Assembly (NCBI GenBank): GCA_051382305.1
Contig: JBBCAV010000245.1
Span: 1-19,313 of the forward strand
DNA: 19,313 nt
From: Bdellovibrionota bacterium FG-2
GTDB lineage: Bacteria; Bdellovibrionota; UBA1018
Direction: 5' to 3'
The notes under the pieces are model-generated. The model searched no databases and was not told the origin of the DNA. It worked only from the letters and a program-made list of their open reading frames with translations. The translations under genes and the position numbers were made by a program. Position 1 is the first letter of the stretch; each line of letters opens with the position of its first letter. This document shows positions 112 to 19,313 of this stretch, one piece after another.

Positions 112-480
112 TTTGATCGCTTCACTACCCAGCACGCCGGGCGCTGATTTTTTTAGATGCTGGTACATCGGATGTGTGGATGGGCCGTTGACCTCGATTT
201 TTGAAAACATCGGGAATTCGACTCCAAACAGTGTTGTGCAGAAGGATTGGATTTCGTCCGCTGTCCCGGGCTCTTGTGCTCCAAACTGATTGCAGGGAAA
301 ACCTAAGACCGCAAAGCCTTGGGCTCTAAATTCGCCGTAAAGAGCCTCAAGTCCTTTGTATTGAGGGGTGAAGCCACAATGGCTTGCAACGTTTACGATG
401 AGTAGCACTTGCCCGCGAAAGGGCGCGAGCGTCGTTTTTTCTCCAGAAAGCCTTATAATTTCAGTATCGTAGATAGACAT
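40..480 (-). pseudogene. gpx: Glutathione peroxidase (Cys-type, BtuE/Gpx family), 3'-truncated; native sequence ends at about 110 and the ORF reads through into foreign DNA to 40
   Basis: Motifs LIVNVASHCGFTPQY, LGFPCNQFGAQEPG, FPMFSKIEVNG and HPMYQHLK are present. The expected IKWNFTKFL is replaced by IKCYAERL... Confidence 0.88.
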
Positions 481-619
481 AGGCCCTCATCTTATCAGAA
501 ATATACCGCAAAAGTGTTCGAAAATCTTCACAATGCGACCAGCACATTTTTGTGGATTTCTCATGAGTCGGTCGGTAGCATTTTCGGGATTGCGCTATGG
601 GTATATGCGGGGGCATTGG

Positions 620-3033: not shown

Positions 3034-3080
3034 GGCCTGATTTTCTAGGGTAAACAAAGAAACCCTATTGCTTCTAGGGT
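3022..3080 (+). repeat. Short tandem repeat CTGA(C/T)TTTCTAGGG x2 plus a third TTCTAGGG core
   Basis: CTGACTTTCTAGGG (3022-3035) and CTGATTTTCTAGGG (3037-3050); TTCTAGGGT at 3072-3080; inverted ACCCTA at 3062-3067. Confidence 0.6.
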
Positions 3081-3132
3081 GATTTTGAGCGAATTTGGGT
3101 ATCTCTCACACCCTTACTTAAGGAGCACCGTT

Positions 3133-3651
3133 ATGACCGCTAAAGTTGATTTTACAAAGATTTCACTTCAAGACGCCCTGGATCTTGCCATTTTGATCGA
3201 AGAAGAGGCGCGAGAGCGATACATCGAGTTTACTAAAGTGGTGGGTGGGGGGTACGAAGGGGATGCGGCTGATGTGTTTGAGAGTATGTCTCGTAATGAG
3301 GCGAAGCACGGTCAGCAACTTCAGGAGCGTCGAAAAAAACTCTTTGGAGCGACGCCTTCGCGAGTCAATCGTTCGATGGTTTTTGATATAGAAGCTCCAG
3401 ATTCGGGCGCGCCGCGACCTTTCATGGGGCCTAGGCAGGCTGCGGAAGTTGCGATGGAAGGTGAGAAAAAAGCTTGGGCCTTTTTCACCGAAGCATTACA
3501 GCACGTCAAAGATGCTGAGGTGAAATCGCTTTTTGTTGAGCTTCAAGGCGAGGAGCTTGAGCATCAAGCCGTTCTCCAGAGACTCATGGAGCATTTGCCT
3601 GAAGGTGCTGATGTCGCGGAAGAAGACGCTGACGAGCCGTCAGCTCTTTAG
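3133..3651 (+). CDS. Rubrerythrin / ferritin-like di-iron protein without rubredoxin domain
   Basis: AGGAG RBS at 3121-3125 before ATG 3133. Two E...ExxH halves (LAILIEEEARERY...EAKH; AMEGEKKAWAFF...ELEH); acidic tail; no CxxC motifs. Confidence 0.88.
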   Translation: MTAKVDFTKISLQDALDLAILIEEEARERYIEFTKVVGGGYEGDAADVFESMSRNEAKHGQQLQERRKKLFGATPSRVNRSMVFDIEAPDSGAPRPFMGPRQAAEVAMEGEKKAWAFFTEALQHVKDAEVKSLFVELQGEELEHQAVLQRLMEHLPEGADVAEEDADEPSAL

Positions 3652-3701
3652 AGTTAAGTCGCCGGTATCAAACCGCACTGTCCAAGTTTTTTACACTTAC
3701 A

Positions 3702-3730
3702 CTGTCATTTTTACAAAAGTGTGCTATGAT
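3702..3730 (+). promoter_or_regulatory. Putative sigma70 promoter P1 (distal, upstream of carD)
   Basis: CTGTCA (3702-3707) - 17 bp - TATGAT (3725-3730), with extended -10 TG at 3722-3723. Confidence 0.45.
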
Positions 3731-3739
3731 GCATTGGTT

Positions 3740-3804
3740 GGTGCCATAACTACTCCAGTAAATTCAATGAATTGAATTATTTGCTGTGCGTTATTTTAGG
3801 CACC
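3740..3804 (+). other. Long imperfect stem-loop in the carD upstream region (candidate structured RNA)
   Basis: Nested complementary pairs GGTGCC/GGCACC, ATAAC/GTTAT, CAGTA/TGCTG (one G-U) and AATTCAA/TTGAATT. Confidence 0.45.
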
Positions 3805-3898
3805 TTAATTGCTTATAGCGCGCCGATGCGTGATGACTCCTCATCTCATATTCGCGGTTTTACGTTTGCAGAATTCGTGTCGATCGGTTCTAGTGGGT

Positions 3899-3928
3899 TT
3901 GACTTTTTAGATCTCACCATGCTAGAGT
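3899..3928 (+). promoter_or_regulatory. Putative sigma70 promoter P2 for carD
   Basis: TTGACT (3899-3904) - 18 bp - TAGAGT (3923-3928), with extended -10 TG at 3920-3921. RBS GGAGGT at 3965-3970. Confidence 0.5.
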
Positions 3929-3980
3929 CCGGTGGTCAAAATTCTGCCTCAACTAGGCGGAGTCGGAGGTCCTTCTAAGT

Positions 3981-4463
3981 ATGTTCAAAGTTGGAGACAG
4001 TGCTGTATATCCTGCTCATGGTGTTGCTGTAATCAAGCGGATCGAGGAAAAGGATGTCGGTGGCAAGAAGAAGACGTTCTACGTTCTTCAAGTCGTCGAT
4101 AATCTCATGACGATCATGGTTCCAACGGACAACGTTGCCTCAGTGGGGCTTCGTCAAATCGTCTCCACCAAAGATGTGAAGACCGTTTATGAAATTTTGA
4201 AAGATCGTAACGTCAAGATCGATCAAACGACCTGGAATCGTCGGTATCGCGAATACATGGAAAAGATCAAGACCGGATCGATTTTTGAAATCGCTGAAGT
4301 GTTGCGCAATCTCTTTTTATTGCGCCATAGCAAAGACCTTTCCTTCGGGGAAAGAAAAATGCTGGACCAAGCCAAACACCTGCTTGTGAAAGAAATTTCG
4401 TTGGCCAAAAAAGCCAATGAATCATTTGTGGAACAAGAAATTCAGACGATTTTTGCTTCTTGA
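3981..4463 (+). CDS. carD: CarD/CdnL family RNA polymerase-binding transcription factor
   Basis: N-terminal RID FKVGDSAVYPAHGVAVI...IMVP...VGLR, conserved Trp in DQTTWNRRYR, and LSFGERKML. 160 aa with no HMGA tail, so CdnL type. Confidence 0.96.
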   Translation: MFKVGDSAVYPAHGVAVIKRIEEKDVGGKKKTFYVLQVVDNLMTIMVPTDNVASVGLRQIVSTKDVKTVYEILKDRNVKIDQTTWNRRYREYMEKIKTGSIFEIAEVLRNLFLLRHSKDLSFGERKMLDQAKHLLVKEISLAKKANESFVEQEIQTIFAS

Positions 4464-4467
4464 TCAG

Positions 4468-4494
4468 GCTTGGGTTAATGTTTAACCCAAGTTT
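4468..4494 (+). terminator. Hairpin filling the carD-cysS spacer (weak terminator, attenuator or processing site)
   Basis: CTTGGGTTAA-TGT-TTAACCCAAG is a perfect 10-bp stem (4469-4491), followed by TTT and the cysS ATG. Confidence 0.5.
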
Positions 4495-6006
4495 ATGACG
4501 CCAAAAGAAACATCAGAAATCCAAGAAATATTCGTAACTAATTCCATATCCCGCCGCAAAGAGCGGCTCGAAACTCGTGTGCCCGGAAAGCTTACGATGT
4601 ATTCGTGCGGCCCGACGGTTTATGGTTTTATTCACATCGGAAACCTCAGGGCTTTATTGACCGCGGATATGTTTTTCCGCGTCTTCAAACGCGCGGGGTA
4701 TGACGTCACTTATGTTCGAAATTATACGGACGTGGACGACAAAATTATTAAACGCGCCAATGAAGAGGGGATTTCGTCCGAAGAAGTCGCGCGAAAATAT
4801 ACGCTTGAAGTTGAAAAGGATTGTCAAACTGTAGGAGTGCTCGAGCCTACTCATAAGACCACCGTTACGACTCACATCGCAGAAATTATCACCATGGTTG
4901 AGCGAATCATCGCAGCCGGCAAGGCCTACGTAGTTGACGGCGAAGTTCTTTTTTCGATTGCGGATTTTCCGGGCTATGGAAAACTTTCGGGCAAGAACAT
5001 TGAAGACCTTGTGGCGGGAGCACGTGTCGAAGTGAGAGATATGAAGCGAAATCCTCTGGATTTCTCCTTGTGGAAACCTGCGAAACCGGATGAACCTTCT
5101 TGGGATAGTCCGTGGGGAAAGGGGCGCCCGGGTTGGCATATCGAATGCTCTGCCATGTCTTCGAAATGGTTGGGGGATCAGATTGATGTGCATCATGGGG
5201 GCGAGGATTTGATTTTTCCACATCATGAAAACGAAATCGCGCAAAGTGAGGCGGCCTCCGGAAAAGCCCCGTTTGTGAAGTATTGGCTTCATCACGTGTT
5301 TGTGAATATGGCCAAAGAGAAGATGTCCAAGAGTTTGGGTAATGTGCTGACGGCTCGGGATTTTTTAAATACTTATTCAGGGGAATTTGCACGCTACCTT
5401 TTGCTATCCGTTCATTATCGTTCCATCATTGAATTTGGAGAAGAAGCAGTTGATCAAACGCTGAACTCTTTGCAGCGAATCTATGAAGCGAAGCAGAAGG
5501 CGTGCGAAGTTGCGGCTCGTCCTGCTCTGGTAGAAGCCCCAGAGTGGGCTGCGTTTCGGGTGACGTGTGCGAAGACCCGAAAAGACATGGGCGACGCGTT
5601 TGCTCATGACTTCAATACTCCGGGAGCAATGGCGGCGGTGTTTGTTTTGATCAGGGAGTTTAATCGTATTTGCGCAACCGGCGCTCAAGGCGGCAATGAG
5701 GCTGCGCGGTTGCTGACTGAGATCCTAGAGGAAGACTTAGACGGGGTTTTAGGCGTGGGACAACGCCCGCCCGAAGATGCACTTAAGGATTTACAGCGCA
5801 TTCGAGGCGCTCGACAGACTGCGGTGAGTGGTGCGGCGGCCGTGAGCAAAGACGAAATTGATGCCCTTATTGCCGAGCGCCTTGCAGCGCGAAAAACAAA
5901 GAACTTTGCCCGCTCGGATGAAATCCGGAAAGATTTGCAAGCGCGCGGTGTGATATTAAAAGACGGACCAGGGGGAACAACCTGGGAATATGGCAATATT
6001 CACTGA
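4495..6006 (+). CDS. cysS: Cysteine--tRNA ligase
   Basis: CGPTVY, HIGN (HIGH motif), [50 protein letters not shown], and C-terminal [14 protein letters not shown]. Confidence 0.98.
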
Positions 6007-8176
6007 ACGTAAATTCGATCTTCATACACTTTTTCAACCCACCGGGGATCAGCCACAAGCTATTGAGGCGCTGGTGCGTGGGCTTAATCAGAACAAAGAT
6101 TCACAGGTTCTTTTAGGGGTAACGGGTTCTGGTAAGACGTTTACGATTGCCAACGTTATTGCGCAAGTAAATCGACCTACATTGATTTTAAGTCATAACA
6201 AAACGCTGGCGGCCCAGCTTTTTAGCGAATTTCGGGAGTTCTTCCCTAATAATGCGGTGGAGTATTTTGTCAGCTATTACGATTACTACCAACCCGAAGC
6301 CTATATTGCGTCGACGGATACCTACATTGAGAAAGATTCTCAGATCAACGACGAGATTGATAAGCTCCGGCATTCGGCTACACGTTCGTTGCTTGAGCGA
6401 AATGATATCATTATTGTTTCTTCGATTTCATGTATCTACGGTTTAGGATCTCCCGAAGCCTATGAGGGGATGCTGCTTTATTTGGAGCAGGGGCGGGAGA
6501 TCAAACGCCAAGACATGCTTCGAAAACTTGTAGAAATCCAATACAAACGCAACGACGTGGATTTTCACCGAGGCACCTTTCGGGTTCGTGGCGATGTGGT
6601 GGAGATTTACCCAGCCTATGAAGAAGAGCGCGCGATACGCGTCGAGTTTTTTGGCGACGAAATTGAATCGATCTCGGAAGTGGACCCCTTGCGTGGGGTA
6701 CGGTTAGCACGGATTCCGAAAGTAACACTTTATCCTGCCAGTCATTATGTCACGACTTTGGAAAGTCGGAAGCGCGCGATCGATTCTGTTCGGGCAGAAT
6801 TGCAGCCGCGCTTACAAGAACTAGAGGGGCAGGGAAAACTGGTTGAGGCTCAGCGCTTGGGGCAGCGCACGCTTTTTGATCTCGAGATGATTGAGGAGCT
6901 GGGTTTTTGCTCGGGGATTGAGAACTATTCGCGGCATTTGACGGGGCGTGCGCCGGGGGAGGCTCCGCCGACCTTATTGGAGTATTTTCCGAAAAACTGG
7001 CTTTGTATCGTAGATGAAAGTCACGTGACGGTCCCACAGATTGGGGGAATGTATCGCGGCGATCGCGCGCGAAAAACTTCTTTGGTCGAACATGGTTTTA
7101 GGCTTCCTTCGGCGCTTGATAATCGGCCGCTGAATTTTGAGGAATGGGAAAAGGGCCTTCATTCGACCATTTATGTCTCCGCGACTCCTGGAGAGTACGA
7201 GCTTACTAAAGCGGGCGGTGAAATCGTTGAACAGGTGATTCGGCCTACAGGGCTACTCGACCCCGTGGTTGAGGTGCGACCCGCCAAAACCCAGGTGGAC
7301 GATCTGCTTGTGGAGATTCGAAAACGCGTGGAGCGGCATGAGCGTGTCCTAGTGACGACTCTGACTAAAAAGCTCGCGGAAGATTTGTCTAAGTACTATC
7401 TCGCACAGGGCGTGAAGGTGAAGTATCTGCACTCGGATATCGATACGCTCGAGCGTATTGAGATTTTGCGAGATTTGCGGCTGGGAACGTTTGATGTGTT
7501 GGTGGGCATCAATTTGTTGCGAGAAGGCTTGGATCTGCCCGAAGTGTCGCTGGTTGGGATTCTCGACGCGGATAAAGAAGGGTTCTTGCGATCCGCGCGT
7601 TCCTTGATTCAAACGATGGGGCGAGCCGCGCGTAATGCCGATGGATTTGTCATTTTGTATGCCGACAAAATCACGGACAGCATGCGCAAAGCGATTGATG
7701 AGACAAGTAGAAGGCGGGCGCTGCAGGAACGTTACAACACAGAGCATGGCATCACCCCTCAGACCATCCAGAAGAAGATTGCGGCGCCGATTTCAATGGG
7801 CGGCGAGAATGATGACGAGGAGATGGGGGGCCCGTCGGGTGCGCGCGGTTCGCACAGATCTAAGAGTGAACGTGCGCAGGCAACCAAGCATGCTCTTCGA
7901 ACAGGAGGAGACCAGGGAAGGCGCGCAAGCCTTTGGGCGGCGGCAGACTCGGGTGCCGCTATCGCGGCCTTGGATTTTGTGGATGGTGCGAGTTGTGTTG
8001 AGCAGATTCGAGAGGCGGCGGGCGAGTTTTTTACTAAGATCGAAGATCTCAGTCGTATCATTCGCGAGATGGACGCCGAAATGAAAAAGGCTGCGAAAGC
8101 TCTTGAGTTTGAGCGCGCCGCAAATCTTCGAGATCGAGTAAAACGGCTGGGGATTTTGAAGTTGAGTTTGGGTTGA
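5990..8176 (+). CDS. uvrB: Excinuclease ABC subunit B
   Basis: PTGDQPQAI, Walker A GVTGSGKT, beta-hairpin [42 protein letters not shown], and C-terminal UVR domain. Overlaps cysS by 17 bp. Confidence 0.98.
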
Positions 8177-8180
8177 AGCC

Positions 8181-9452
8181 CTATCGAATCCATCCCACCA
8201 ATCGGGCAAAATACCCGGCGCTCAGGGGCCATGGCCAATGCAAGAAGACTTGATGATCTAGCTGTAAACAAAAGAAGAGTACTGCGATAGACCCGGCGAT
8301 GCGATCCGCTTTTTTGGGAGAAGAGCCAGACGCGGCGAGGATAGGCAAGATAAAGAGGCCATGCCATGGCCTTCGGTCGGGAGTCTGAATCAGCATAAAG
8401 AGTTGCCAAAGGCAGAGTGAGGCAGGAAGCCAGAGTCGCCTGGCGCCCAAGAAAAGCAAAACCACGCCTAGGCAGACAACTAGGCTATACCAGGCTTCGC
8501 TCGAGCGTGCGGCATTGACGAAGGTATAGTGAAGTGGGTTTGTGATGGCATAGGTTTGGATATCGGGAAGGGCCAAACTTAGCGAGTAGGCTGAGGCGCC
8601 TAGGAGGAAGCACGAAAAGAGAAGGGGAGTGAGTCTCCGAAGAGCGAGCAATGTGTTTAGGCGCGGCTTGGCGGCTTGTTGGAATGTTACCCATAACCCC
8701 GCTCCAAGGAGAGGGAGCATCCAAAGGGCGCGATAATGAAGAAAAACAGCGATGGAATACGATACCACCGAGAGAATCCCCTTTTTTTGCCGCAAGAAAT
8801 AGACCGACAAAAAAAGAAACAAAATAGAAGCAGGGTCATAAATCCCATAGATGGACCAAAAACAAAGTTCTATGAATACCAAGGGCAAAAGTACCAACCA
8901 TGCCAAGGCCTTCCAGTCGGAGGTTTTTGATTCGGCATGATCAGCTTCCGGCGTGAAGAGTAGGCAAAAGAGAAAAATCGCTGCTGCGCAATGAGCGGCA
9001 AAGAGGTGCTTGAACAGGGTAAATTTCTTGATCAAAGAAAAGGGCGCGAGAAAAACCGAGTGCAGTAAAGCCTCAGGCGCCGAATACAAAAACGCACCCG
9101 GTGGATAGTTCTGAACTCGGGTCTGCCAATTCACTAAGAATCTCGGGATTTTCATGTGCCCGGGGACCGCGCACGAAAGATCGGGCCTTACAAATTCGCG
9201 AGCATAGCGATTTTGGGCGCTCAAATCAGATGGAGCACAAAACTGGCTAGAGGGGAGGCGATAGACATCGAAGCCATTAAAGTAGAACAGAATTGCGCTT
9301 CCCCAATGGGAAATGTGATCTGTATTTTCAAGTCTGTAAGATCCTGTTCCATTATCGAAGACCTTTGTGGCAATGTTTGTGAAGAATAGGATTGATAGAC
9401 CAAAAACCGCGATAAGAATCCAGGGGCGCCGCATGAGAAATAGATTTCCCAT
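8181..9452 (-). CDS. Polytopic membrane protein, probable GT-C fold glycosyltransferase (GT87/PMT-like)
   Basis: About 10-11 hydrophobic segments. Acidic residues in the first external loop (ENTDH), a YPPG motif, and GIYD followed by a TM helix, as recalled for GT87-like enzymes. Confidence 0.6.
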   Translation of the reverse strand: MGNLFLMRRPWILIAVFGLSILFFTNIATKVFDNGTGSYRLENTDHISHWGSAILFYFNGFDVYRLPSSQFCAPSDLSAQNRYAREFVRPDLSCAVPGHMKIPRFLVNWQTRVQNYPPGAFLYSAPEALLHSVFLAPFSLIKKFTLFKHLFAAHCAAAIFLFCLLFTPEADHAESKTSDWKALAWLVLLPLVFIELCFWSIYGIYDPASILFLFLSVYFLRQKKGILSVVSYSIAVFLHYRALWMLPLLGAGLWVTFQQAAKPRLNTLLALRRLTPLLFSCFLLGASAYSLSLALPDIQTYAITNPLHYTFVNAARSSEAWYSLVVCLGVVLLFLGARRLWLPASLCLWQLFMLIQTPDRRPWHGLFILPILAASGSSPKKADRIAGSIAVLFFCLQLDHQVFLHWPWPLSAGYFARLVGWIR

Positions 9453-9504
9453 GAGATCAATACTTCTTCCAGCTAAATCCGTCTTTGTTGTGGTTTCTTA
9501 GAAT

Positions 9505-12500
9505 TTACTCTGGACTATAGGCTTCTGTGGGGACTGAGAATTTTGAGCTCCCCCTGAGGATTTGCGAGATCCGTAGCTCGTCTAGGTCGCCATCTAAATT
9601 TTCGCCGGAAGAAGATGCGCCGATTCGAAGCGGCGCCGTGGATTTGAACAGAGCCGCGGATCCTGCAGTCCCAATGGTCGCAGATCCTTTGGCGAGGCCA
9701 TCATAATAGAATTTCACTGTTCCTTGATTCCAGGTCACGGCCACATGGTGGAACTTCGTGATGTCAACGGTGATTGCCGAAGAGTTTTTCCAGGTGATTG
9801 TACTTCCGTTGAGACTGGCCCCAAAGGACAAGTAATAGCTCGTGCTGATTTTTTTGAGTTTAAAGACCCACCCCATTTGTGGGGAGGTATCACTTTTGCT
9901 GACAAGCGTGTAGGCCGTTGTGGTTGTGGGCAATGAACCGAGCCGCACGAAAGCCTCTGCGGTAAGTGTCTTTGTGGAAAGTTGTAGCGCGGCCGTGTCT
10001 GGGGCCTGCATGGATTGCGAGGCTGCTGCGGTGAATCTGCGCGAATTTCCGAACTTGGCAGCCGATCCAGCGGTCGTACCGTTGTCGGTAAGGGTGTTGT
10101 GAAGGGCTCCTGTGAAAGCGCTGCTGTCGAGTGTGGGACCCGGGTTACTGTCGAAGTGGTATAGGGCTAAAGTATTGTAGGCTTCTTGGTTCCATGTGTG
10201 ACTTTTGGTGGGTCCTTGGTTCCCAAGGAGATCAGCGGAGAATGCCTCAAACGTATGGGTTCCATTGGGCATAGTTGAGAAACTCGTGGGTGATAGGCAG
10301 TTAGAATAGGCGGCTCCGTCAATACGGCATTGAAAAATTGTATTCGTCTTGCTTGTCGAAAAACTAAAACTTGCGGAAGTCGCGAGGTTTTGTCCGGGCG
10401 GTGTTGAAGTGATGGTGGTCACGGGCAAGACCGTATCGCGAGTCCACTGAACGGAGATGAGTCCGGAGTTAATTCCGCTGGGGCTTGTTTGCCTAATTGC
10501 GAAGGTATACACGCCGTCGAGGGTCTTGCTTACGACAAACCCGTAGCTTTGCTGATTACAAAGCTGTGTTTGAGTTAAATCTCCGGACACTGTGACCGTA
10601 TGACCGTCATTGCACCCACCCGCCAGCGGTAAGGTTGAGGTATTCGTCGTGATGGGATTTTGAGCGAGCGAAGTGAGGGTGGGGGTTGAGGGCATAGTGG
10701 AGGTTCTGATCCAGGAGATAGGCGCAGCAGGAGATGGGTTTCCAGCGAGGCTGATCTGCGAGATGCTGAAATTGTAGGTTCCATCGACGCTTTTTGAAAC
10801 TTCAAAGGAGTAGGATTGTGAAACACAAAGTGTGCTGGCCGTCGCATCTCCTGTGAGATAGACGGTAGCGTTGCTTAGACATTTTCCCGAGAGCGTAACG
10901 GTTGAGTTCGAATAGACAGGGCTTGAGGCAGGGTTGGTTATCGTCGGAGGCGTCGGCGTTTGGGTGTCCCGGATCCACGTCAGATTTGCCGCGGCGGAGG
11001 TTGTGCCTGCAGGATTGGTTTGGGAGACTGCGAACCAATAAGTGCCATCTTGGTCTTTCGAGGAGTTGAAGCTGTAAGTGGAGTTGGCGCACGTTGTGGT
11101 TTGATCGCTCGCGCCAGACAGAGTGACGCTGTTACCGCTTTGACAAATTCCTGCAATTGAAACTTGCGAGGTGTTAGAGGTGGTCGCAGCATTTGAGGGT
11201 TGGGTGATCGTCGGTGTTGCTGGCACTGAGGTGTCTCGAATCCAGGTAAAATGCGTGGCGCTCGAAGCGTTTCCAGCGAGATCGACCTGGGTGATGGTGA
11301 GGGGGTAAACTCCGTCGATCGTTTTTATAAAATCCAAGCTATACCAAGATCCGATGCACATGTCTTCGCTCGATGGCGTGCTGGGTGCGTCGTCCTCAGC
11401 GATTGAGACTTTTGCAAAGGGTTCGCAGGCTCCACTGAGTGACAGTGTTGAATCAGAAGAAGTGAGGGGGTTACTCATTGGGAACGCGAGTACGGGTGCA
11501 GCGGGAGAGACCGAGTCTTTGATCCAACGCAAAGAAGAGGCGGCTGATTGCGTGCCGGAAAGATTGGTTTGGGTGACGTTAAAATCGTAACTCCCGTCGT
11601 TTGACTTACTGATTGCGAAATTAAAGGTTCCATTGTCGCCACAAAGGACATCGGCAATTTCGGAGCCCTTGAGGTTCACTTTGGCGCCCATGATGCAGCT
11701 CCCGGTTATGTTTAGGGTGGAATTTGACGAGTAAAATGGATTGGCAGCGGGACTTTGAATTTGTGGCGCCGAAGGAAGTGAGGTGTCTCGCGTCCAGGTG
11801 AATGTGATGCTCGGAGAGATGTTTCCAGCTTTGTCTTTTTGTAAAAGTGAAAAAAGATAAGTGCCATCTTCTTTGATGAGGTCGATCGTAAAGGAGTAGC
11901 TTCCGTCGGACTTGCAAGTTTGGTTAGCAGTAAGGGCACCTGCAAGCGCGACTTCGGCACCCGCTTCGCACAGCCCTGCGAGATTGAAGGATGAGTCCCC
12001 TGAGACGTAGGGATTGACGGCGGGAGTGAGAATTGAAACTTTCGAAGGTGCAGCTGTGTCTCTTGTCCAGGTGAAGCTCACCGCCGCGGAATGCGTTTGC
12101 GCTGGGTCGACTTGGATGAGGTTAAAGACGAATGTTTCGTCAGTCGTTTTCTTGACTTCAAAGGTGAATGCTCCTGCTTCACAGGGTTTTGATTGAAAGT
12201 CTCCTCCGCTAAGAATGACTGTGTTTCCGGCGGTACAGGCGCCGTTGCAGGCGAGAATCGAGCTGTTGTTTGTGATTTGGGCCCCGGTGGGGCTGGTGAG
12301 TTTCGGCGCGTCAGGCGCGGGTAAAGGGGGTGTGGAGGCTTCGACGCTCGCGTTTTGTTCTACCGATGGCGAAGGCGGTGTCCCGTTGGGTTGTTGCGGG
12401 GATGTTGGCGTTCCTCCGATTGAAACAAGGGGTTTTCCCGATGTGCTTTTTGAGCGCGTGCATCCATTGAGCACAAGGCAGAGCATAAAGCTCACGGACG

Positions 12501-12540
12501 CGATGGCGCAAAATAGCGTAACTTTCCCCCTAGTGATCAC
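9505..12540 (-). CDS. Large surface lipoprotein with seven tandem Cys-containing Ig-like repeats, an eighth Ig-like domain and a C-terminal LamG/ConA-like lectin domain
   Basis: GTG at 12540 with AAGGGGG RBS gives MITRGK + hydrophobic stretch + LNG-C lipobox (track start 12582). About 90-aa repeats end W(T/I)(R/K)D. FQCRIDG...CLSP Ig domain. LamG motifs LALYHFD, LTAEAFV, FHHVAVTW, FYYDG, LRIG and GDLDELRIS. Confidence 0.88.
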   Translation of the reverse strand: MITRGKVTLFCAIASVSFMLCLVLNGCTRSKSTSGKPLVSIGGTPTSPQQPNGTPPSPSVEQNASVEASTPPLPAPDAPKLTSPTGAQITNNSSILACNGACTAGNTVILSGGDFQSKPCEAGAFTFEVKKTTDETFVFNLIQVDPAQTHSAAVSFTWTRDTAAPSKVSILTPAVNPYVSGDSSFNLAGLCEAGAEVALAGALTANQTCKSDGSYSFTIDLIKEDGTYLFSLLQKDKAGNISPSITFTWTRDTSLPSAPQIQSPAANPFYSSNSTLNITGSCIMGAKVNLKGSEIADVLCGDNGTFNFAISKSNDGSYDFNVTQTNLSGTQSAASSLRWIKDSVSPAAPVLAFPMSNPLTSSDSTLSLSGACEPFAKVSIAEDDAPSTPSSEDMCIGSWYSLDFIKTIDGVYPLTITQVDLAGNASSATHFTWIRDTSVPATPTITQPSNAATTSNTSQVSIAGICQSGNSVTLSGASDQTTTCANSTYSFNSSKDQDGTYWFAVSQTNPAGTTSAAANLTWIRDTQTPTPPTITNPASSPVYSNSTVTLSGKCLSNATVYLTGDATASTLCVSQSYSFEVSKSVDGTYNFSISQISLAGNPSPAAPISWIRTSTMPSTPTLTSLAQNPITTNTSTLPLAGGCNDGHTVTVSGDLTQTQLCNQQSYGFVVSKTLDGVYTFAIRQTSPSGINSGLISVQWTRDTVLPVTTITSTPPGQNLATSASFSFSTSKTNTIFQCRIDGAAYSNCLSPTSFSTMPNGTHTFEAFSADLLGNQGPTKSHTWNQEAYNTLALYHFDSNPGPTLDSSAFTGALHNTLTDNGTTAGSAAKFGNSRRFTAAASQSMQAPDTAALQLSTKTLTAEAFVRLGSLPTTTTAYTLVSKSDTSPQMGWVFKLKKISTSYYLSFGASLNGSTITWKNSSAITVDITKFHHVAVTWNQGTVKFYYDGLAKGSATIGTAGSAALFKSTAPLRIGASSSGENLDGDLDELRISQILRGSSKFSVPTEAYSPE

Positions 12541-12595
12541 GTTCAAATTCCCCCTTAAGCTACACCCTCTATAGTCTCGCAAAAGGTGGGATTAG

Positions 12596-12607
12596 TAAAG
12601 TACTTTA
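12596..12607. promoter_or_regulatory. Perfect 12-bp palindrome in the divergent promoter region
   Basis: TAAAGTACTTTA lies between the divergent lipoprotein and Cache/MCP genes. Confidence 0.35.
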
Positions 12608-12780
12608 GTCAGGTATTGTTTTCTAAAAAGATTCAATGATTTCAAAGTGTTAAAGCTGATGGTTGTGTAGTGGTTCGGTTTTCTTGATTACGCTGGTCGT
12701 CTCTGTAATACTTGGAGGATCTAAACCAAAGTATTTTTAACGCCCTCTTCTTAGGAGAAGAAATATAAGCCTTTTCACTC

Positions 12781-13254
12781 TTGTCGCTTGCGGCCTTGTT
12801 TTTGTGTTTTTCCAACGGCGCTTTTTCCGCAGATACGAAAAAATCTCTGGAATCTCTGGAAGCCAAATTGACGAAGATTGGGGCTCCTCGGGTTGAAGGG
12901 ACTGATACCGTTGCAGGTAAAGAAGTGCCCGCGGTCTATTTTGGAAAAGTGAAGATCAATAATAATTATGACGTCGTGGATGATGTAAAAAAATTGCATG
13001 GCGGAACCGCCACGGTTTTCGTCAAAGCGGGTGAGGAATTTATTCGAGTCAGCACCAATGTTCTCAAGGACGATAGCACGCGCGCGGTGGGGACCCCTTT
13101 AGCGAGAAACAAGGCTTATGAGTCTGTGATGAAGGGTGAAACCTTTTGCGGTGAAGTGGAGATTCTCGGGGCGCCTTATGACACTTGTTATAAGCCCATT
13201 AAGGATGGGGCAAACATCTTAGGAATTTATTACGTTGGTTTCAAGAAAAGATAG
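12781..13254 (+). CDS. Stand-alone secreted Cache 3/Cache 2 fusion-type sensor domain protein; native start codon (about 12765) appears damaged
   Basis: GGTATVFVK...FIRVSTNV...RAVGTPL...[19 protein letters not shown]...GIYYVG; signal-peptide h/c-region ending AFS-AD. AGGAG at 12753-12757 is followed by ATAA instead of ATGAAA. Confidence 0.82.
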
Positions 13255-13259
13255 CCGCA

Positions 13260-14867
13260 ATGAATGAGCGGATTCACCGATTCATTGGTGTATTTAGAAG
13301 TCTAAGTTTTCGCGGAATACGGGGGAGGATGATCGCGATGTCCGCAACGCCGGTCATCCTCATGGTTCTCGTCGTATCTTATGTTTTCTTTCAGGTGGGC
13401 GTGCTTTCCAAGGATCTCAATAATGTCATAGATAACATGGTTCCCGCAGTGACCACGAGCAAGGAACTCAGCTCAGAAATAAATACCGCGTCGAGGTATT
13501 TGTGGAGCGCCTATCTTTTTAGAAAAGAGCCGGCGCCGTTTTCGGCAAACGTTACGCTTTTTGAGAGAGCGGTTGAGCGAATGAAGAGCGCGCGGGAGCG
13601 CTACTTGCAAATTCCAATGAATGCTCGCGCGGAAACCCTCAGGAAAGAGGCGGAAACGCTTCTCAAAGAACTCGATCCGGTTTCGGAGTTGATTCTAAAA
13701 ATGTTCAATGAAAAGCGGGCGGATGATGTTCCGACTTTGGCGAATGAAAAGTTGATGCCCGGGTTCAAGAAACTCGAAGACATTTTCTCCAATATCGAGA
13801 TGAATAACGCGGATACGATCGAGGCCGAAAAGGAATATGCCACGAGAATCACAAAGAAGGCCTGGACATCAATCGTGTTTGGTTCCCTTTTTGCGGTCTT
13901 GGCCTCCATTTTGTTTTCCGTATTGTATTCAGAAAAAATTGCTTCGGCGCTCGGGGAGATCTGTAAAAACTTGTCACGAGAGTCGAATTCGACGAAGAGT
14001 CAGTCCGCCAGTATTGCGGCCTCTTCTAAGGAGCTTGCAGAATCATCGACCCGGGCTGCCTCTGCTCTTCAAGAGACGGCCGCCGCGATCGAGGAAACGA
14101 GCGCGATGATTCAAAAGAATGCCAATAATGCGAATCAGTCCTCCGCAGTTTCGCGGGAGAGTGTTGAGCAGGTCGATGCCGGGAAGAATTCGATGAACGA
14201 CATCAAGGCGGCAGTTAATGGAATTAAGGCTGCCAGTGCGGATATGCAAAGTGTCGTAGGCGAGAGCAATAATCAGTTTTCGGATATTTTGAAAATTATT
14301 AACGAGATCGGCCAAAAAACCCAACTCATTAACGATATTGTTTTCCAGACGAAACTCCTTTCTTTTAATGCGTCAGTTGAAGCGGCTAGAGCGGGCGAGC
14401 AAGGCAAGGGCTTTGCGGTCGTGGCGGAGGAGGTGGGGAAGTTAGCAAGGAGCAGTGGAAGTGCATCTGACGAGATTTCTACACTGTTGGATGCGAGCAA
14501 ATCCCGTGTTCAAGGGATCGTGGAGCAAACGAAGCAGAGTATGGGTGGGGTCACCGAAACGATTCAGTTGAAGGTGAATGCAAGTGAGGCAGTTGTGGGT
14601 GCGAGTGTTGAACTCTTGGAGAAGATTGCTGAGAAGTCCAAAGAGGTAAATCGGCTGGTTGATGAAATTGCCAGTGCGTCAGTGGAACAGTCCAATGGCG
14701 TTGCCGAGATTGGAAAATCGATGCATGAGCTCGATCAGGTCTCCAATCAGAATATGAGCGCAGGGCAACAGATCGCGAATTCTTCTCAGCAGTTGCTTAA
14801 GCAATCTGAAAGTTTGGATCAAATCGTAGGCGAACTCGCCGCTATTATTGAAGGCAAGGCGGTTTGA
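13260..14867 (+). CDS. Methyl-accepting chemotaxis protein with periplasmic four-helix-bundle sensor and no evident HAMP domain
   Basis: Two TM helices flank a helical periplasmic domain of about 155 aa. Signalling hairpin [36 protein letters not shown]; methylation helices [11 protein letters not shown] and [12 protein letters not shown]. Confidence 0.95.
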
Positions 14868-14885
14868 GACAGTCGGCAGCGAAAT

Positions 14886-15344
14886 TTACTTTGCTTCGGG
14901 CACGCCACCATGAATTAGGATCTTCATGTCGTTACGGAAGATCACTTCAATCTTGTTGGGATAGATCAAGCGGCCGACGATGCCTTCGCCAAAGTTCGTG
15001 TGCTTCAATTTGTCGCCCAAGGTGAACTGGCCCTTCATGGTATAGGACTTCATCGGTGCATCTTTATGGGTGTTCATGAGCTTCTCCCATTCGGCTTCGA
15101 TGGAGCTCTCAGGGGTAGTGCCGTCTGCTGCTTTCTTTTTGCGAGGCGCGCGGGTTGGCTTGGCTTTGGGTTCGGTGACGCCTTTAGGGGCACGATAAAC
15201 GTGCTCTTTTTTGCAAGTGAAGCATTGTACTTTAGCAATCCGATCGCCTTTCATAGCAACAATTATGGAGTTCAAATCCATCTTGCAGCTCATGCAGTAG
15301 GCTAATGTTTCTTTTGCAACTTCGTTTGTGGGGGTCCCGGCCAT
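14886..15344 (-). CDS. Conserved hypothetical protein: N-terminal zinc ribbon, basic linker, C-terminal PcrA/UvrD-CTD-like Tudor domain
   Basis: AAGGAG RBS; CMSC...CFTC...H; KAKPTRAPRKKK; FTLGDKLKHTNFGEGIV...IEVIF...KIL. Confidence 0.82.
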   Translation of the reverse strand: MAGTPTNEVAKETLAYCMSCKMDLNSIIVAMKGDRIAKVQCFTCKKEHVYRAPKGVTEPKAKPTRAPRKKKAADGTTPESSIEAEWEKLMNTHKDAPMKSYTMKGQFTLGDKLKHTNFGEGIVGRLIYPNKIEVIFRNDMKILIHGGVPEAK

Positions 15345-15384
15345 TTTTATCTCCTTAATTTTTGCGTCACTTTGGTTATAGTGG

Positions 15385-17193
15385 ATGTGGATGGAAAATC
15401 AAGTGTCCAAACGAGCACTTCTCCTAGATTTAGCAAAATCTGCTCCAAATTCGCCTGGGGTGTATCTAATGAGGGAGCCTGAAGGCGGAATTCTCTACGT
15501 CGGCAAGGCCAAAAACCTCAAAAACAGGCTTACGACCTACTTTCAGCCAGCCCCACATGAAATGGGCCGGACCGAGATGCTGGTGGGCCGCATCGATCGG
15601 TTTGATGTGATTCTCACGGAAACCGAAGTCGAAGCGCTAATTCTGGAATGTACGCTGATCAAGAAGCATCGCCCGCGCTTCAATGTTCGACTCAAAGATG
15701 ACAAGGCGTACCCCTATCTCAAAATCCAGCTCAGTAGGCCTGAAGAGGCGTTTCCACGGCTCGAATGGACGAGGCGGGTTCAAAAAGACGGAGCGCGGTA
15801 TTTCGGCCCTTTTCCTTCGGCGTGGTTTGCCAGGCAGGCAATGGAACTCTTGACCCGTAGTTTTCGCCTGCGCGCGTGTTCGGACAATACCTTTCGCCAT
15901 CGCTCCCGACCCTGTATTTTGTTTCAAATGGGACAGTGCTCGGGATCGTGCGTGGGTGAGGTGTCTCAAGAGGACTACCGCCGGGTGATTGAGCGAGTCG
16001 TCGCAATTCTCGAGGGACGTGAGACTGCTTGGCTGGATGGGCTTCGGGCCCAAATGGAGCAAGCATCCCAAATAGAAGATTACGAACAAGCCGCAGAAAT
16101 CCGTGACCAGCTCCGCTGCCTTGAAGCGGTGACCCAGACCCAAGGCGTTCTAGAGGCAGGTTCAGAGCGCGATCGGGATGTTCTGGGGCTTGCGCGCGCG
16201 GAGGGGGCGGAGGGAGGAGGAGAGCAGGCGCATGCAACGGTCCTTCGTATTCGGGGTGGCAAATTGATTTCGGCTGAACACTTTCATCTGCAAAACACAG
16301 ATCCGGGGCTTACGGAGAGTGAAATCAGTTACGAGTTTTTGGCGCAATATTATGTGGATCAAGCGCAGCCTGGAAAGAAGGGCGTTGCCTTGGTGCCGCC
16401 CAAGGAGATTTTGGTTTCGGTGATGCCTGAGGCTGAGACGGAAGGTAAGACGGATATTTCAGTTCTCGAGGATGCCACCGGCGTTCCCGTACATCTACCT
16501 GATCCCGAAGATCGTACGGCAATGCAACTGTTGAATGTCGCACAAATCAATGCGCGCCATGCACTCGATCATTTGCTTGCCAAGGGCAAGGCTCTTGGAG
16601 GGCATGGTTTTGCGGCGCTTGAAGAAGTGCAGGAGAAGCTTCATTTGCAGAAGTTTCCACGACGGATGGAGTGTTACGATATTTCGAATATTCAAGGGCA
16701 AGACGCGGTGGCCTCGCGTGTGGTGTTCATAGATGGAGCTCCGGATAAGAATCTCTATCGTCGTTACAAGATACGAACGGTAGAGGGCGCTAATGATTTT
16801 GCGATGATGAAAGAAGTGCTTTCGCGGCGGTTTTTGGCAGCGCTAAAGGAAAGCGAAGGCGCGGCCGGTGCAGGGGGAGATGCGCTCCCCGATCTCATTG
16901 TGGTCGACGGAGGCAAAGGGCAGCTCGCGCAAGCATTAGCGGTTTTAGAGGAGTTGGGCGTGCAGGGGGTGCCGGCGGTGGGACTTGCGAAGGCGAGGAC
17001 GGAAGGGGATTTCACTGCCAAAGAGGTTAAGGTATCTGCGGAACGAATCTTTTTACCCAACCGCAAAAACCCTGTGATTTTGTTGCCTCATACTGCTTCG
17101 TATCGCGTACTCACGCACTTGCGGGATGAAGCGCATCGGTTTGCAGTCAGTTATCATCGCGTGGTGCGGTCGAAGAGGATATTGGGGCAGTGA
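15385..17193 (+). CDS. uvrC: Excinuclease ABC subunit C, lacking the C-terminal HhH domain
   Basis: GIY-YIG (PGVYLM...LYVGKAKNLKNRL...EALILE...FNVRLKDDKAYPY), four-Cys region, UVR domain (DYEQAAEIRDQL), and RNase H-like domain (ECYDISN, VDGGKGQ, RDEAHRFA). Stop follows about 14 aa later. The start could be 15385, 15391 or 15403. Confidence 0.96.
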   Translation: MWMENQVSKRALLLDLAKSAPNSPGVYLMREPEGGILYVGKAKNLKNRLTTYFQPAPHEMGRTEMLVGRIDRFDVILTETEVEALILECTLIKKHRPRFNVRLKDDKAYPYLKIQLSRPEEAFPRLEWTRRVQKDGARYFGPFPSAWFARQAMELLTRSFRLRACSDNTFRHRSRPCILFQMGQCSGSCVGEVSQEDYRRVIERVVAILEGRETAWLDGLRAQMEQASQIEDYEQAAEIRDQLRCLEAVTQTQGVLEAGSERDRDVLGLARAEGAEGGGEQAHATVLRIRGGKLISAEHFHLQNTDPGLTESEISYEFLAQYYVDQAQPGKKGVALVPPKEILVSVMPEAETEGKTDISVLEDATGVPVHLPDPEDRTAMQLLNVAQINARHALDHLLAKGKALGGHGFAALEEVQEKLHLQKFPRRMECYDISNIQGQDAVASRVVFIDGAPDKNLYRRYKIRTVEGANDFAMMKEVLSRRFLAALKESEGAAGAGGDALPDLIVVDGGKGQLAQALAVLEELGVQGVPAVGLAKARTEGDFTAKEVKVSAERIFLPNRKNPVILLPHTASYRVLTHLRDEAHRFAVSYHRVVRSKRILGQ

Positions 17194-17203
17194 GTTTAGG
17201 GGG

Positions 17204-17236
17204 TTGCACAGTCCATTTTAGATGCTAAAATGGACT
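17204..17236 (+). promoter_or_regulatory. Sigma70 promoter overlapped by a perfect 12-bp inverted repeat (candidate operator); predicts a leaderless mRNA
   Basis: TTGCAC (17204-17209) - 16 bp - TAAAAT (17226-17231) with extended TG. AGTCCATTTTAG-ATG-CTAAAATGGACT spans 17210-17236. ATG at 17238 has no SD. Confidence 0.65.
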
Positions 17237-17237
17237 T

Positions 17238-18380
17238 ATGTACTCCAGATTGTTTAAGCCGCCGTTGAACAAAAGTTTTTTTCTTTTCGGGCCTCGCGGC
17301 ACGGGAAAAACGACATGGATTAAGCAAAATCTGCCTGAGTCCGCTCTTCTCAATCTGCTTGATGACGAGCTGTATCGCCGTTTATTGGCGCGTCCAGAGT
17401 CGCTTCTCGATTGGGTTCCAAAATCGCAGCGCTCCAGGCCCATAGTGATTGATGAAGTCCAAAAGATTCCGGCGCTACTTAATGAGGTCCATCGGCTCAT
17501 TGAGGATGAAAAACTTGTTTTTGTCCTCACGGGCTCAAGCGCAAGAAAATTGAAAAGAGGGGCGGCAAATCTTTTGGCTGGCCGGGCTTATCGGTATGAG
17601 ATGTACCCTTTAACAAGCGTTGAAGCGCAAAAAGATTTTGATCTAAAGCACGCACTTCAACATGGGATGTTGCCCGCCATAAATACGGAACCTAATCCCA
17701 AAGCCTTCTTAAGCGCCTACGTCTCAACCTATCTCAAGGAGGAGATTCAGCAGGAGGGGTTGACCCGAAACCTTGCGGCTTTTGCTCGGTTTCTAGAAGT
17801 TGCCAGCTTTTCGCAAGCGCAGCCTCTCGTCGTCTCAAATGTCGCGCAAGACTGTCAGATTGAACGTAAAGTCGTCGAGGATTATTTTTCAATCCTGGAA
17901 GACCTCATGATCGCCGCGCGATTGCCCGTATTTTCAAAGCGGGCAAAGAGAGAGCTTTATTCCAAGAGTAAGTTTTACTTTTTTGATGCAGGAGTTTTTC
18001 AAAGTATTCGTCCAAAGGGGGCTTTGGATTCGACCGAGGAGCTTCAAGGCGCATCGCTTGAGACCCTGGTTTTTCAGGAACTTCGAGCCCTTAATTCTTA
18101 CCTCGAATGGGGGTATGATCTTTTCTATTGGCGCGCGAAATCGAAACATGAGGTCGATCTTATCCTTTACGGCGAAAAAGGCCTCCATGCCATTGAGGTG
18201 AAATCCTCGTCGCGCGTGAGAAAAGAAGACCTGGCTGGCTTAGAACTTTTTGCTTCAGATTATCCGGTGGCCTCTCAGACCCTCGTCTATTTGGGGCCCA
18301 AGCAATACGTCGAATCCGATATTCGAGTCATTCCTGCTGCTGATTTTTTTCAACAGACGAAAAGTCTTTTTGGAGCTTAA
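17238..18380 (+). CDS. AAA+ ATPase (AAA_14) with DUF4143 / C-terminal PD-(D/E)XK nuclease-like domain (COG1373-type)
   Basis: Walker A GPRGTGKT, Walker B IVIDEVQK, LTGSSARKL, LAGRA, KFYFFDAG, and LFYWR...EVDLI...AIEVKS. Confidence 0.92.
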   Translation: MYSRLFKPPLNKSFFLFGPRGTGKTTWIKQNLPESALLNLLDDELYRRLLARPESLLDWVPKSQRSRPIVIDEVQKIPALLNEVHRLIEDEKLVFVLTGSSARKLKRGAANLLAGRAYRYEMYPLTSVEAQKDFDLKHALQHGMLPAINTEPNPKAFLSAYVSTYLKEEIQQEGLTRNLAAFARFLEVASFSQAQPLVVSNVAQDCQIERKVVEDYFSILEDLMIAARLPVFSKRAKRELYSKSKFYFFDAGVFQSIRPKGALDSTEELQGASLETLVFQELRALNSYLEWGYDLFYWRAKSKHEVDLILYGEKGLHAIEVKSSSRVRKEDLAGLELFASDYPVASQTLVYLGPKQYVESDIRVIPAADFFQQTKSLFGA

Positions 18381-18528
18381 TTCTCTAAGACTGAGACTTT
18401 GAAACGAAAGGGCCTCTATTCATTCCCTCCAGGAATGATTCGCATTACTTCTATCTATTTTAGTTTATCCGCTTTTGTGATCATACACTGTATCAGAAAC
18501 GAAAACCTTTAATTTGAGGATCTCAGTC

Positions 18529-19068
18529 ATGTTCCAAAAGTCATTCTTAGTTTTGGTACTTTGCGCTCTTGTCACGTCTTCGGCTCTGGCTCCGAAGAGG
18601 GCTCACGCCGTTGTCGGACTTGCCACCGCCAACGTCCCTGCAATGATTGTGGGCGGCGCGCTGCTTGCGGTGGGTGGGGGCTTGGTGTTGGATGCGGCGA
18701 TCCCTCGCAAGCCTATCAATCCTGTGGGTGAGGTTTTGCGGGCATTTGTCGGCGCAGTCGAACTCCTTGCGGGCGGCACGCTCGGAATCGCAGGCCTTGT
18801 GGTTTTAGATCAAGAGGGATCCAAAGAAATAGCTTTTTCAGAGCTTTCGATTGAGCAAGCCACTGCACTGAGCGTGACGGATGAATCACGAGAAGTTTAC
18901 AACCAAGAACTTGAAGAGCTAAACGCGATCAAGGATTCTGTGGCCTCAGATCTCTCAGGCGATCAGCACCCCACAATTGAAAAATCAGCAGAACTTTGGA
19001 ACAGCTACAAAGCAAATCTGAGTCCCGCGACGCTTGAAGTGATGGGAAAAGTATTGAGCCAAAAATAA
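18529..19068 (+). CDS. Hypothetical exported/membrane protein with Gly/Ala-rich hydrophobic segments
   Basis: GAGGA RBS at 18516-18520 and ATG at 18529. Signal peptide ending AHA, two Gly-rich hydrophobic stretches, and an acidic helical C-terminus. Confidence 0.75.
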   Translation: MFQKSFLVLVLCALVTSSALAPKRAHAVVGLATANVPAMIVGGALLAVGGGLVLDAAIPRKPINPVGEVLRAFVGAVELLAGGTLGIAGLVVLDQEGSKEIAFSELSIEQATALSVTDESREVYNQELEELNAIKDSVASDLSGDQHPTIEKSAELWNSYKANLSPATLEVMGKVLSQK

Positions 19069-19106
19069 GTTGGAAATAAGTTACTGTATAGCTAGGGCGT
19101 AGCAAT

Positions 19107-19313
19107 TCAGCCCGCCGTGAAGCGCTTTGGATTCCCGGTTTTTGGTACCCTTTTCCAAGTAGGATTGAGCAGGCGGCGGCGCAATGGGCGCAGGGTCGGT
19201 GGGATCTCATTTGCGATTTTCGTGATCATCTCCTGGTGGGAAACATTGCTGAGCGCGATATCGATTTCATCCGCAGTGTGTTGGCCGCACAATAGCGGTA
19301 TCACGTAGACCAA
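19107..19313 (-). CDS. 3' end of a gene running off the window, probably a transposase
   Basis: Frame is open to the edge. The pattern LV..IP.L.G..T..EI..AL..V...P.TL...RRR.L plus a basic tail resembles, from memory, C-termini of unclassified large DDE transposases. Candidate end sequence CTAGGGCGTAGCAATT (19092-19107) abuts the stop. Confidence 0.45.
   Translation of the reverse strand: MVYVIPLLCGQHTADEIDIALSNVSHQEMITKIANEIPPTLRPLRRRLLNPTWKRVPKTGNPKRFTAG

Follow-up and report, generated by a model that had tools for sequence, protein, structure and literature searches.

The window analysed here, a 19,313-nucleotide stretch of the genome of Bdellovibrionota bacterium FG-2 (assembly GCA_051382305.1, contig JBBCAV010000245.1, positions 1 to 19,313), encodes on its minus strand, at 14886-15344, a protein of 152 amino acids (aa) that ends in a Tudor domain of the PcrA/UvrD type and has no helicase part. 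In PcrA and UvrD this domain is a handle that brings a repair helicase to RNA polymerase (RNAP), and its role in transcription-coupled repair is debated. Since the 152-aa protein carries the RNAP-docking domain of UvrD, it probably sits on RNAP, possibly linking transcription to DNA repair. The reading favoured here, to which we give about an even chance, is that of a small basic accessory factor docking on RNAP through a stand-alone Tudor domain. The PcrA/UvrD C-terminal domain is already known as a module; what is new is a stand-alone Tudor domain combined with a four-Cys domain and a basic linker, its broad, conserved occurrence and the presence of a complete UvrD alongside it.

Translation of the open reading frame (ORF) gives 152 residues followed by a stop, and confirms the description in an earlier reading of the same DNA (hereafter the original prediction), namely CxxC pairs, a basic linker and a Tudor-like segment, in a gene lying head-to-head with uvrC. 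The protein contains the motifs C17-x2-C20 and C41-x2-C44-x3-H48, a K/R/P-rich stretch at residues ~50-78 and, at residues 107-143, the segment FTLGDKLKHTNFGEGIV...IEVIF...KIL. An AAGGAG ribosome-binding site is located 6 nt 5' of its ATG (complement of 15351-15356). In the AF2 model the mean pLDDT is 81.7, with values above 90 in the four-Cys domain and the barrel, and the ORF can be divided as follows:

14886..15344, minus strand: whole ORF, member of an unnamed family, with four-Cys domain, basic linker, helix and UvrD-type Tudor domain (translation, homologue clusters)
15198..15311, minus strand: N-terminal four-Cys beta domain, residues 12-49 (conserved Cys; pLDDT >90)
15111..15197, minus strand: disordered basic linker, residues 50-78 (pLDDT ~48-65; variable in length, always basic)
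15069..15110, minus strand: helix with conserved W86, residues 79-92 (helix by DSSP; pLDDT ~88-93)
14904..15053, minus strand: C-terminal Tudor barrel of PcrA/UvrD type, residues 98-147 (profile, hhalign and fold matches)

The identity of the C-terminal domain is supported by sequence profiles and by its modelled fold, a barrel with strands at residues 98-100, 112-115, 119-127, 131-136 and 140-144, all with a pLDDT above 90. A single-sequence search of the PDB with the 152-aa protein returned chance matches only (E 0.16 and 0.78), and PF21196 (PcrA_UvrD_tudor) did not match it even with E allowed up to 1. A family profile, built from 37 members across the phylum whose alignment also served for all conservation counts given below, produced only four matches with E below 1 among 177,635 PDB sequences, all of them UvrD C-terminal domains (7egs_B, E 0.0023; 6yi2_A, 0.0029; 7egt_B, 0.11; 4c2t_A, 0.44). 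When compared by hhalign with seven UvrD C-terminal domains of the same phylum, the family reached a probability of 85% (E 5.9e-6 over 30 columns), versus 1.9% with the window's own CarD. The DUF3553 model (PF12073) matched 2 of the 37 members below threshold (best E 0.03). In the ESM Atlas none of the clusters at 0.95 had a name; the closest one that does, PF21196, scored 0.77 and serves as a lead only.

Fold comparisons led to the same domain. The top Foldseek match was 7egs_B, in which the C-terminal domain of E. coli UvrD is in complex with the RNAP lobe (probability 0.99, E 0.17, TM 0.64 by target length, 44 columns aligned at rmsd 1.7). With VIA-align, run against 48,161 representative chains and with differences within 1 Z unit counted as ties, mycobacterial UvrD1 (Z 5.7), E. 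coli UvrD (5.6) and Geobacillus PcrA (5.5) occupied ranks 1-3, with an rmsd of 2.0-2.7 over 42-44 residues; ranks 5 and 6 were taken by the Tudor domains of Thermus thermophilus UvrD and Mycobacterium tuberculosis UvrD1, giving five UvrD/PcrA domains between Z 5.7 and 5.0. The PDB profile, hhalign and the two fold searches thus agree with the original prediction that this segment is a helicase-free relative of the PcrA/UvrD C-terminal domain.

The residues through which PcrA contacts RNAP are kept in this family. Sanders et al. (PMC5397179) tested the mutants H681A, W684A, K712A and L714A of the Geobacillus PcrA C-terminal domain and report that point mutations on this surface greatly reduced RNAP binding, and that K708A in E. 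coli UvrD also had an effect. Aligned via E. coli UvrD, PcrA H681, W684, K712 and L714 correspond to H115, F118, K141 and L143 of the 152-aa protein. All four positions are conserved, H115, F118 and L143 being invariant and position 141 being K or R in 37/37 members, and together they form the predicted RNAP-binding face.

The likely docking site is also present on the polymerase. According to Urrutia-Irazabal et al. (PMC8318588), the helicase interaction motif, [VIL]-D-x-x-T-G-E-[VIL]-[VILT], is a beta-hairpin found in RpoB SI1 and in UvrB, in which the Glu is the partner of the Tudor domain's conserved Lys. Translated in six frames, the genome contains this motif three times, one of them being RpoB 311-319 (VDEKTGEVL). 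Across the phylum, RpoB retains TGE in 23/30 genomes and the Glu in 29/30. When RpoB 140-460 was modelled together with residues 78-152 of the 152-aa protein, each with its own alignment, the complex reached an ipSAE of 0.77 (three runs: 0.79, 0.77 and 0.77), the best of three controls remaining at 0.00; the ipSAE mark used in calibration was reached by 116/157 solved complexes and 2/215 mismatched pairs. The runs shared at least 81% of contacts, with a partner pLDDT of at least 84. Residues 170-182 of the RpoB fragment (the TGE hairpin, including T176, G177, E178 and V179) were placed against residues 115-118, 126-131 and 141-144 of the protein. The model, the RpoB part of those called for in the original prediction, thus sets the Tudor domain on the hairpin used by UvrD and PcrA, and what it displays is a likeness to UvrD docking, memory of the solved complex 7EGS being possible.

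The family is large and almost entirely unnamed. Homologues fell into 340 groups when clustered at 90% identity, and those with a name are called 'hypothetical protein', except for one JGI label, 'ribosomal protein L14E/L6E/L27E'; at 50% identity the representatives numbered 1056. A literature search found no paper on the family, subscription journals lying outside its coverage. Members were present in 166/201 sampled genomes of the window's phylum and in 145/166 of those at least 90% complete, and most genomes searched had a single copy. Judging by source names, close homologues belong to Oligoflexia and Bdellovibrionales metagenome-assembled genomes (MAGs). Outside the phylum, the family occurs in Myxococcaceae and Archangiaceae (Corallococcus, Myxococcus xanthus, Archangium, Cystobacter, Hyalangium) and in a few MAGs labelled Desulfuromonadales and Acidobacteriota. 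Identity to homologues in 13 other genomes of the same taxonomic family ranged from 57 to 77%. Homologues are 83-304 aa long, and in them the Tudor domain stands alone, with no SF1 helicase attached; no longer or fused form turned up in a search of longer proteins, a negative of little weight. Variants were also encountered (P0222, P0188 and P0259): one has two tandem four-Cys domains ahead of the Tudor domain (219 aa), and others have linkers of 100-150 residues containing acidic stretches (260-304 aa).

Besides the three invariant residues of the predicted RNAP-binding face, C17, C41, C44, G119, G121 and F136 are invariant in the alignment. C20 is kept in 36/37 members and Y101 is Y in 36/37; position 86 is W in 31/37 and Y in 6/37. 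H48 is H in only 26/37 members, and need not be a metal ligand. Of the CxxC...CxxC-xxx-H pattern in the original prediction, the four Cys are thus conserved and the His is not. In the AF2 model, the four-Cys domain has strands at 12-17, 22-32, 35-41 and 47-49. Modelled in isolation (pLDDT 84.6), it had no clear relative in fold searches: VIA-align gave a Z of at most 4.9 with high rmsd and Tudor/SH3-like barrels first, Foldseek likewise returned Tudor-like barrels as best matches (E 0.17, probability 0.98), and the matches overall were weak ones, to Tudor/SH3-like or zinc-ribbon folds. Elf1-type and other small zinc ribbons (PF05129) share with it two CxxC knuckles on a small beta domain; the Elf1-type model matched 15/37 members, none reaching the cut-off (best E 0.0064). 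The N-terminal region is best described as a four-Cys beta domain that presumably binds zinc.

Bringing these elements together, the Tudor domain would dock through H115, F118, K141 and L143 on the exposed TGE beta-hairpin of the RNAP beta lobe/SI1 (RpoB 311-319), the very site used by PcrA and UvrD. This would leave the four-Cys domain and the flexible basic linker available for nucleic acid or for another protein. Once on RNAP, the protein might recruit a further factor to transcription complexes that have stalled or run into conflict, or it might control the access of UvrD to the site. In several lineages its gene order with uvrC or with a Tudor-less Rep-like helicase, described below, points to excision repair or to the handling of transcription conflicts. 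The fold, the conserved residues, the matching hairpin, the distribution and the gene order were observed or computed, and binding to RNAP, to zinc and to nucleic acid, as well as a role in repair, are inferences.

Within the same genome, a UvrD of 747 aa carries a Tudor domain of its own and a 732-aa paralogue has none, and PF21196 matches were found in 165/201 genomes of the phylum, mostly on ORFs of ~750-800 aa. As the UvrD of this genome keeps its Tudor domain, the 152-aa protein is an addition to it and not a replacement, and we reject the idea that it arose when a UvrD shed its Tudor domain. Both proteins having a Tudor domain, they would target the same hairpin. The small protein might then act as a decoy that occupies the RpoB hairpin, competes with UvrD and tunes its loading while recruiting nothing itself, an explanation that we regard as unlikely. 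The presence of a Tudor-bearing UvrD in this genome and in most of the phylum fits this idea, as does the interface in the complex model, which is that of UvrD. According to the introduction of PMC8318588, blocking the association of PcrA with RNAP raises R-loop levels, and the strain table of that paper lists strains expressing the C-terminal domain alone. A pure competitor, however, would not need a conserved four-Cys domain, a helix and a basic linker, and the slow evolution of the protein within its taxonomic family and its mostly single-copy status suit a positive role of its own.

The basic character of the family raises another alternative. The linker is 16-38 residues long and variable in sequence, yet its net charge is always +3 to +9 (median +5, 37 members), and the median pI of the family is 9.6. 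The protein could accordingly be a general nucleic-acid binder, associated with the nucleoid, RNA or the ribosome, in which an SH3/KOW-like barrel with a basic tail resembles UvrD through shared fold only. Matches of the barrel to KOW, PWWP, ProQ and ribosomal SH3-like folds (Z 3.8-4.8), the single ribosomal-protein label among the homologues, and the pseudouridine synthase genes that adjoin the family gene in three loci outside the phylum are all in line with this possibility. We nevertheless hold it to be rather improbable, because the invariant positions are those of the PcrA protein-binding face and not of a generic basic surface, and because the profile and hhalign comparisons single out UvrD C-terminal domains.

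The genomic context of the gene points in several lineages to DNA repair. In the window, the 152-aa ORF and uvrC are transcribed divergently, their start codons 40 bp apart, with the following features on the uvrC side:

15345..15384, no strand assigned: 40-bp gap between the divergent starts, holding the AAGGAG ribosome-binding site and a TATAGT box (sequence)
15385..17193, plus strand: uvrC, 602 aa, without C-terminal (HhH)2; genomic context (Pfam, TIGR00194)

In a closest set of 30 loci, all from the window's order, uvrC was the divergent neighbour in 29, the thirtieth (L048) having uvrC 1.4 kb away. A second set comprised 80 further loci of the phylum with 5-kb flanks, in which L048 repeats its place in the closest set. 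Here, a divergent uvrC was found within 5 kb at 23/80 loci (all 20 from family f19, two of the three from f11, and L048). A UvrD-family helicase of ~670 aa was encoded downstream on the same strand at 19/80 (all 17 f18 loci, one f26 and one f28), and three f22 loci had only an unassigned ~300-aa protein and fumC upstream. One f11 locus without an adjoining uvrC has uvrB 2.1 kb away, and uvrB lies within ~2.3 kb in two f11 loci. No uvrC link was seen in the loci of f15, f25, f13, f12, f20, f22 and f18. The neighbouring helicase of the f18 type is Rep/PcrA-like by NCBIfam, below cut-offs, and lacks a Tudor domain; at three of the 19 helicase loci, ~0.8-1.1 kb or one intervening gene separates it from the gene of the 152-aa family. 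In f18 the Tudor-less helicase forms an apparent operon with the gene of the small Tudor protein, and phylum genomes encode a pair of UvrD-family helicases, of which only one has a Tudor domain (L034:5462-7495 (+); L118:1697-3895 (+)). The linkage to uvrC, which the original prediction proposed to survey, is thus solid among the closest loci and partial among the more distant ones, and it was not seen in seven families of the phylum or at the loci sampled outside it. The link with repair genes is real in several lineages and not family-wide, and may go back to no more than two or three independent arrangements.

Several other genes recur around the family. A conserved protein of ~283-310 aa is encoded directly upstream on the same strand in f18, f22, f26 and f28 loci, usually after fumC (L034:4035-4967 (+), with counterparts in L035, L044-L047, L083-L091, L103, L104, L107, L108 and L112-L114); it had no Pfam or NCBIfam match, and tblastn revealed no counterpart in the window's own genome. 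A PPDK gene adjoins the family gene both in an f19 Bdellovibrionota genome (L031:2192-4867) and in a MAG labelled Desulfuromonadales (L206:2179-4839), and NUDIX genes recur near it in f15/f25 loci and in MAGs labelled Acidobacteriota. These PPDK and NUDIX neighbours may be remnants of old synteny or may have arisen by chance. Outside the phylum, endonuclease V adjoins the family gene in one MAG.

The association with uvrC brings up the possibility of an excision-repair adaptor acting via UvrB or UvrC and not via RNAP, in which the Tudor domain binds UvrB as in 7EGT or the protein supplies DNA binding to a UvrC lacking its HhH domain. Chains of 7egt, where the C-terminal domain of Thermus thermophilus UvrD is paired with the N-terminal domain of UvrB, were indeed among the fold matches, with chain B at a Foldseek TM of 0.61 by target length (rmsd 1.2 over 34 columns) and chain D at Z 5.1 in VIA-align, and uvrC is the divergent neighbour in three lineages. 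The UvrC of the window has GIY-YIG, UVR and two RNase-H-like domains ending at residue 588/602, with 14 residues following; Pfam found no HhH domain in it, and the two UvrC family models stop matching at 537/574 (TIGR00194, 475 bits) and at 590/652. The neighbouring UvrC therefore does lack HhH, as had been noticed from the sequence at the outset. UvrC without (HhH)2 is typical of the window's order and of f11, f16, f13 and f12, the domain being kept in f18, f22, f15 and f25.

Neither route for such an adaptor fared well. In the phylum, the key Glu of the UvrB hairpin (window 6680-6706, UvrB 231-239; L213-L242) is present in only 3/30 genomes, and the window's UvrB reads DPLRGVR at this place, the Glu being missing, so that binding of UvrB in the published way, and with it the UvrB bridging advanced in the original prediction, looks doubtful from the sequences compared. 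The 27/30 phylum genomes that lost this Glu keep a Tudor-bearing UvrD nonetheless. For the HhH domain, genomes within the 150 genome rows listed were classed on the 652-position UvrC model (match ending at or beyond position 641, HhH present; ending at 582-603, absent; split matches and ends at 604-640 left out). The family was present in 31/36 genomes with HhH-bearing UvrC and in 28/39 with HhH-less UvrC, and in none of the nine f16 genomes, which have HhH-less UvrC. The proposal that the protein replaces the HhH domain of UvrC, expected to show as co-occurrence, was rejected on these counts, and an adaptor working through UvrB or UvrC appears quite improbable overall.

Several points weigh against the interpretation of the 152-aa protein as an RNAP-docking factor with a link to repair. 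No Pfam or NCBIfam model matched it at its cut-off; PF21196 matched just 4/37 members, all below threshold (best E 0.026), and the CarD_TRCF_RID model (PF02559) matched 5/37, also below threshold (best E 0.042). The fold matches score modestly (Z at most 5.7, Foldseek E above 0.1), and those to CarD (Z 4.9 and 4.7) and the NusG KOW domain (4.8) come within 1 Z unit of those to UvrD; the fold alone would thus not choose between them, and it is the sequence evidence that does. As a complex similar to the one modelled is already solved (7EGS), the ipSAE obtained may reflect memory and not binding by this copy. With regard to gene order, all seven f20 loci have a divergent alr (7/80), and 28/80 loci (f15, f25, f13, f12 and one f11) have none of uvrC, helicase, alr or the ~300-aa protein, L099 among these 28 having given no match to the 152-aa protein itself in the neighbourhood scan. 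At 64 loci outside the phylum, found with a single myxobacterial homologue as query, uvrC, uvrB and a Rep-like helicase were all absent within 5 kb (0/64) and alr was present in eight; seven of these loci, scanned with Pfam, had MlaE/ABC transporter, NUDIX, RluA-type pseudouridine synthase and PPDK genes as neighbours. Finally, related genomes are not independent, and the uvrC and helicase links may each stem from one ancestral arrangement.

Of the adaptor envisaged in the original prediction, supposed to bridge RNAP, UvrB and DNA, the RNAP side has the support of the conserved face and the modelled hairpin contact, and the UvrB side looks doubtful given the loss of the hairpin Glu in most genomes. 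A bolder version of the RNAP-docking reading would make the protein a detachable docking subunit, its Tudor domain on the beta-lobe hairpin and its zinc domain and basic linker holding a repair enzyme without its own docking domain, namely UvrC in lineages with the head-to-head arrangement and the Tudor-less Rep-like helicase in those with an operon. We consider this version quite unlikely; if true, it would amount to a route of transcription-coupled repair or conflict handling that needs neither Mfd nor the UvrD Tudor domain.

Among known systems, the closest is the PcrA/UvrD C-terminal domain itself (PF21196; 5DMA, 6YI2, 7EGS, 7EGT, 9DQS), with which the 152-aa protein shares the five-stranded Tudor barrel, the pattern GDx(3)Hx(2)[FW]GxGxV...F...KxL, the four RNAP-binding residues and, as predicted by the complex model, docking on the RpoB TGE hairpin. 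The former sits on a helicase, whereas the latter follows a four-Cys domain, a linker and a helix, falls below the Pfam cut-off and occurs beside a normal UvrD. A precedent for the portability of this domain is provided by DUF3553 (PF12073) and by the C-terminal Tudor-like domain of mycobacterial DinX, a case described in PMC6511836 of a PcrA/UvrD-like Tudor domain outside a helicase, proposed there to target RNAP. DinX is a polymerase, while the 152-aa protein has no catalytic domain, and the DUF3553 model matched few members of the family. CarD/CdnL and the Mfd RID (PF02559) are likewise small proteins or modules with a Tudor-like barrel (fold Z 4.7-4.9). They bind RNAP beta, Myxococcus CarD adding a DNA-binding tail (PMC4374960, PMC2919716), and CarD/RID contact the beta1 region and not the SI1 hairpin (PMC5397179). 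The 152-aa protein differs from CarD by its very low hhalign probability, and the window has a separate CarD gene.

That CarD gene (3981-4463) and uvrB (5990-8176), both correctly placed in the window by the original prediction, form with cysS (4495-6006) a tight plus-strand array, in which the cysS and uvrB ORFs overlap by 17 bp as listed. In the intergenic region of the 152-aa gene, the TATAGT box (15377-15382) lies 2 nt before the annotated uvrC ATG (ORF start 15385, plus strand) and 8 nt before a second in-frame ATG (15391), and among 29 related intergenic regions inspected (L002-L012 and L022 among them), 11 have a TTATAG(T) box directly before uvrC. Its position suggests a leaderless or near-leaderless uvrC transcript and a promoter overlapping the 5' end of the divergent gene. 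A consensus scan of 14600-15700 gave no promoter-like and no terminator-like site. Among sequencing runs, a search listed one of DNA, possibly from the source sample, and none of RNA. For a LexA-box pattern of Bdellovibrio, TTACNNNGTAA, five one-mismatch matches were found in the window, with 3.5 expected by chance and none near the 152-aa gene. Elsewhere in the window, a minus-strand ORF of 1025 aa (9505-12582) starts with a signal-like N-terminus and is rich in ~90-residue repeats of the type '...F(T/S)W(T/I)RDT...'; it is probably a secreted or surface repeat protein.

If the RNAP-docking reading holds, the 152-aa family would represent a new RNAP-associated factor in most sampled Bdellovibrionota and in Myxococcaceae. 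Genetic tools exist for Myxococcus xanthus and Bdellovibrio bacteriovorus, and with this family one can ask directly what follows when a protein that is not UvrD sits on the UvrD site of the beta lobe. Over 1000 sequence clusters now labelled hypothetical would also gain a function.

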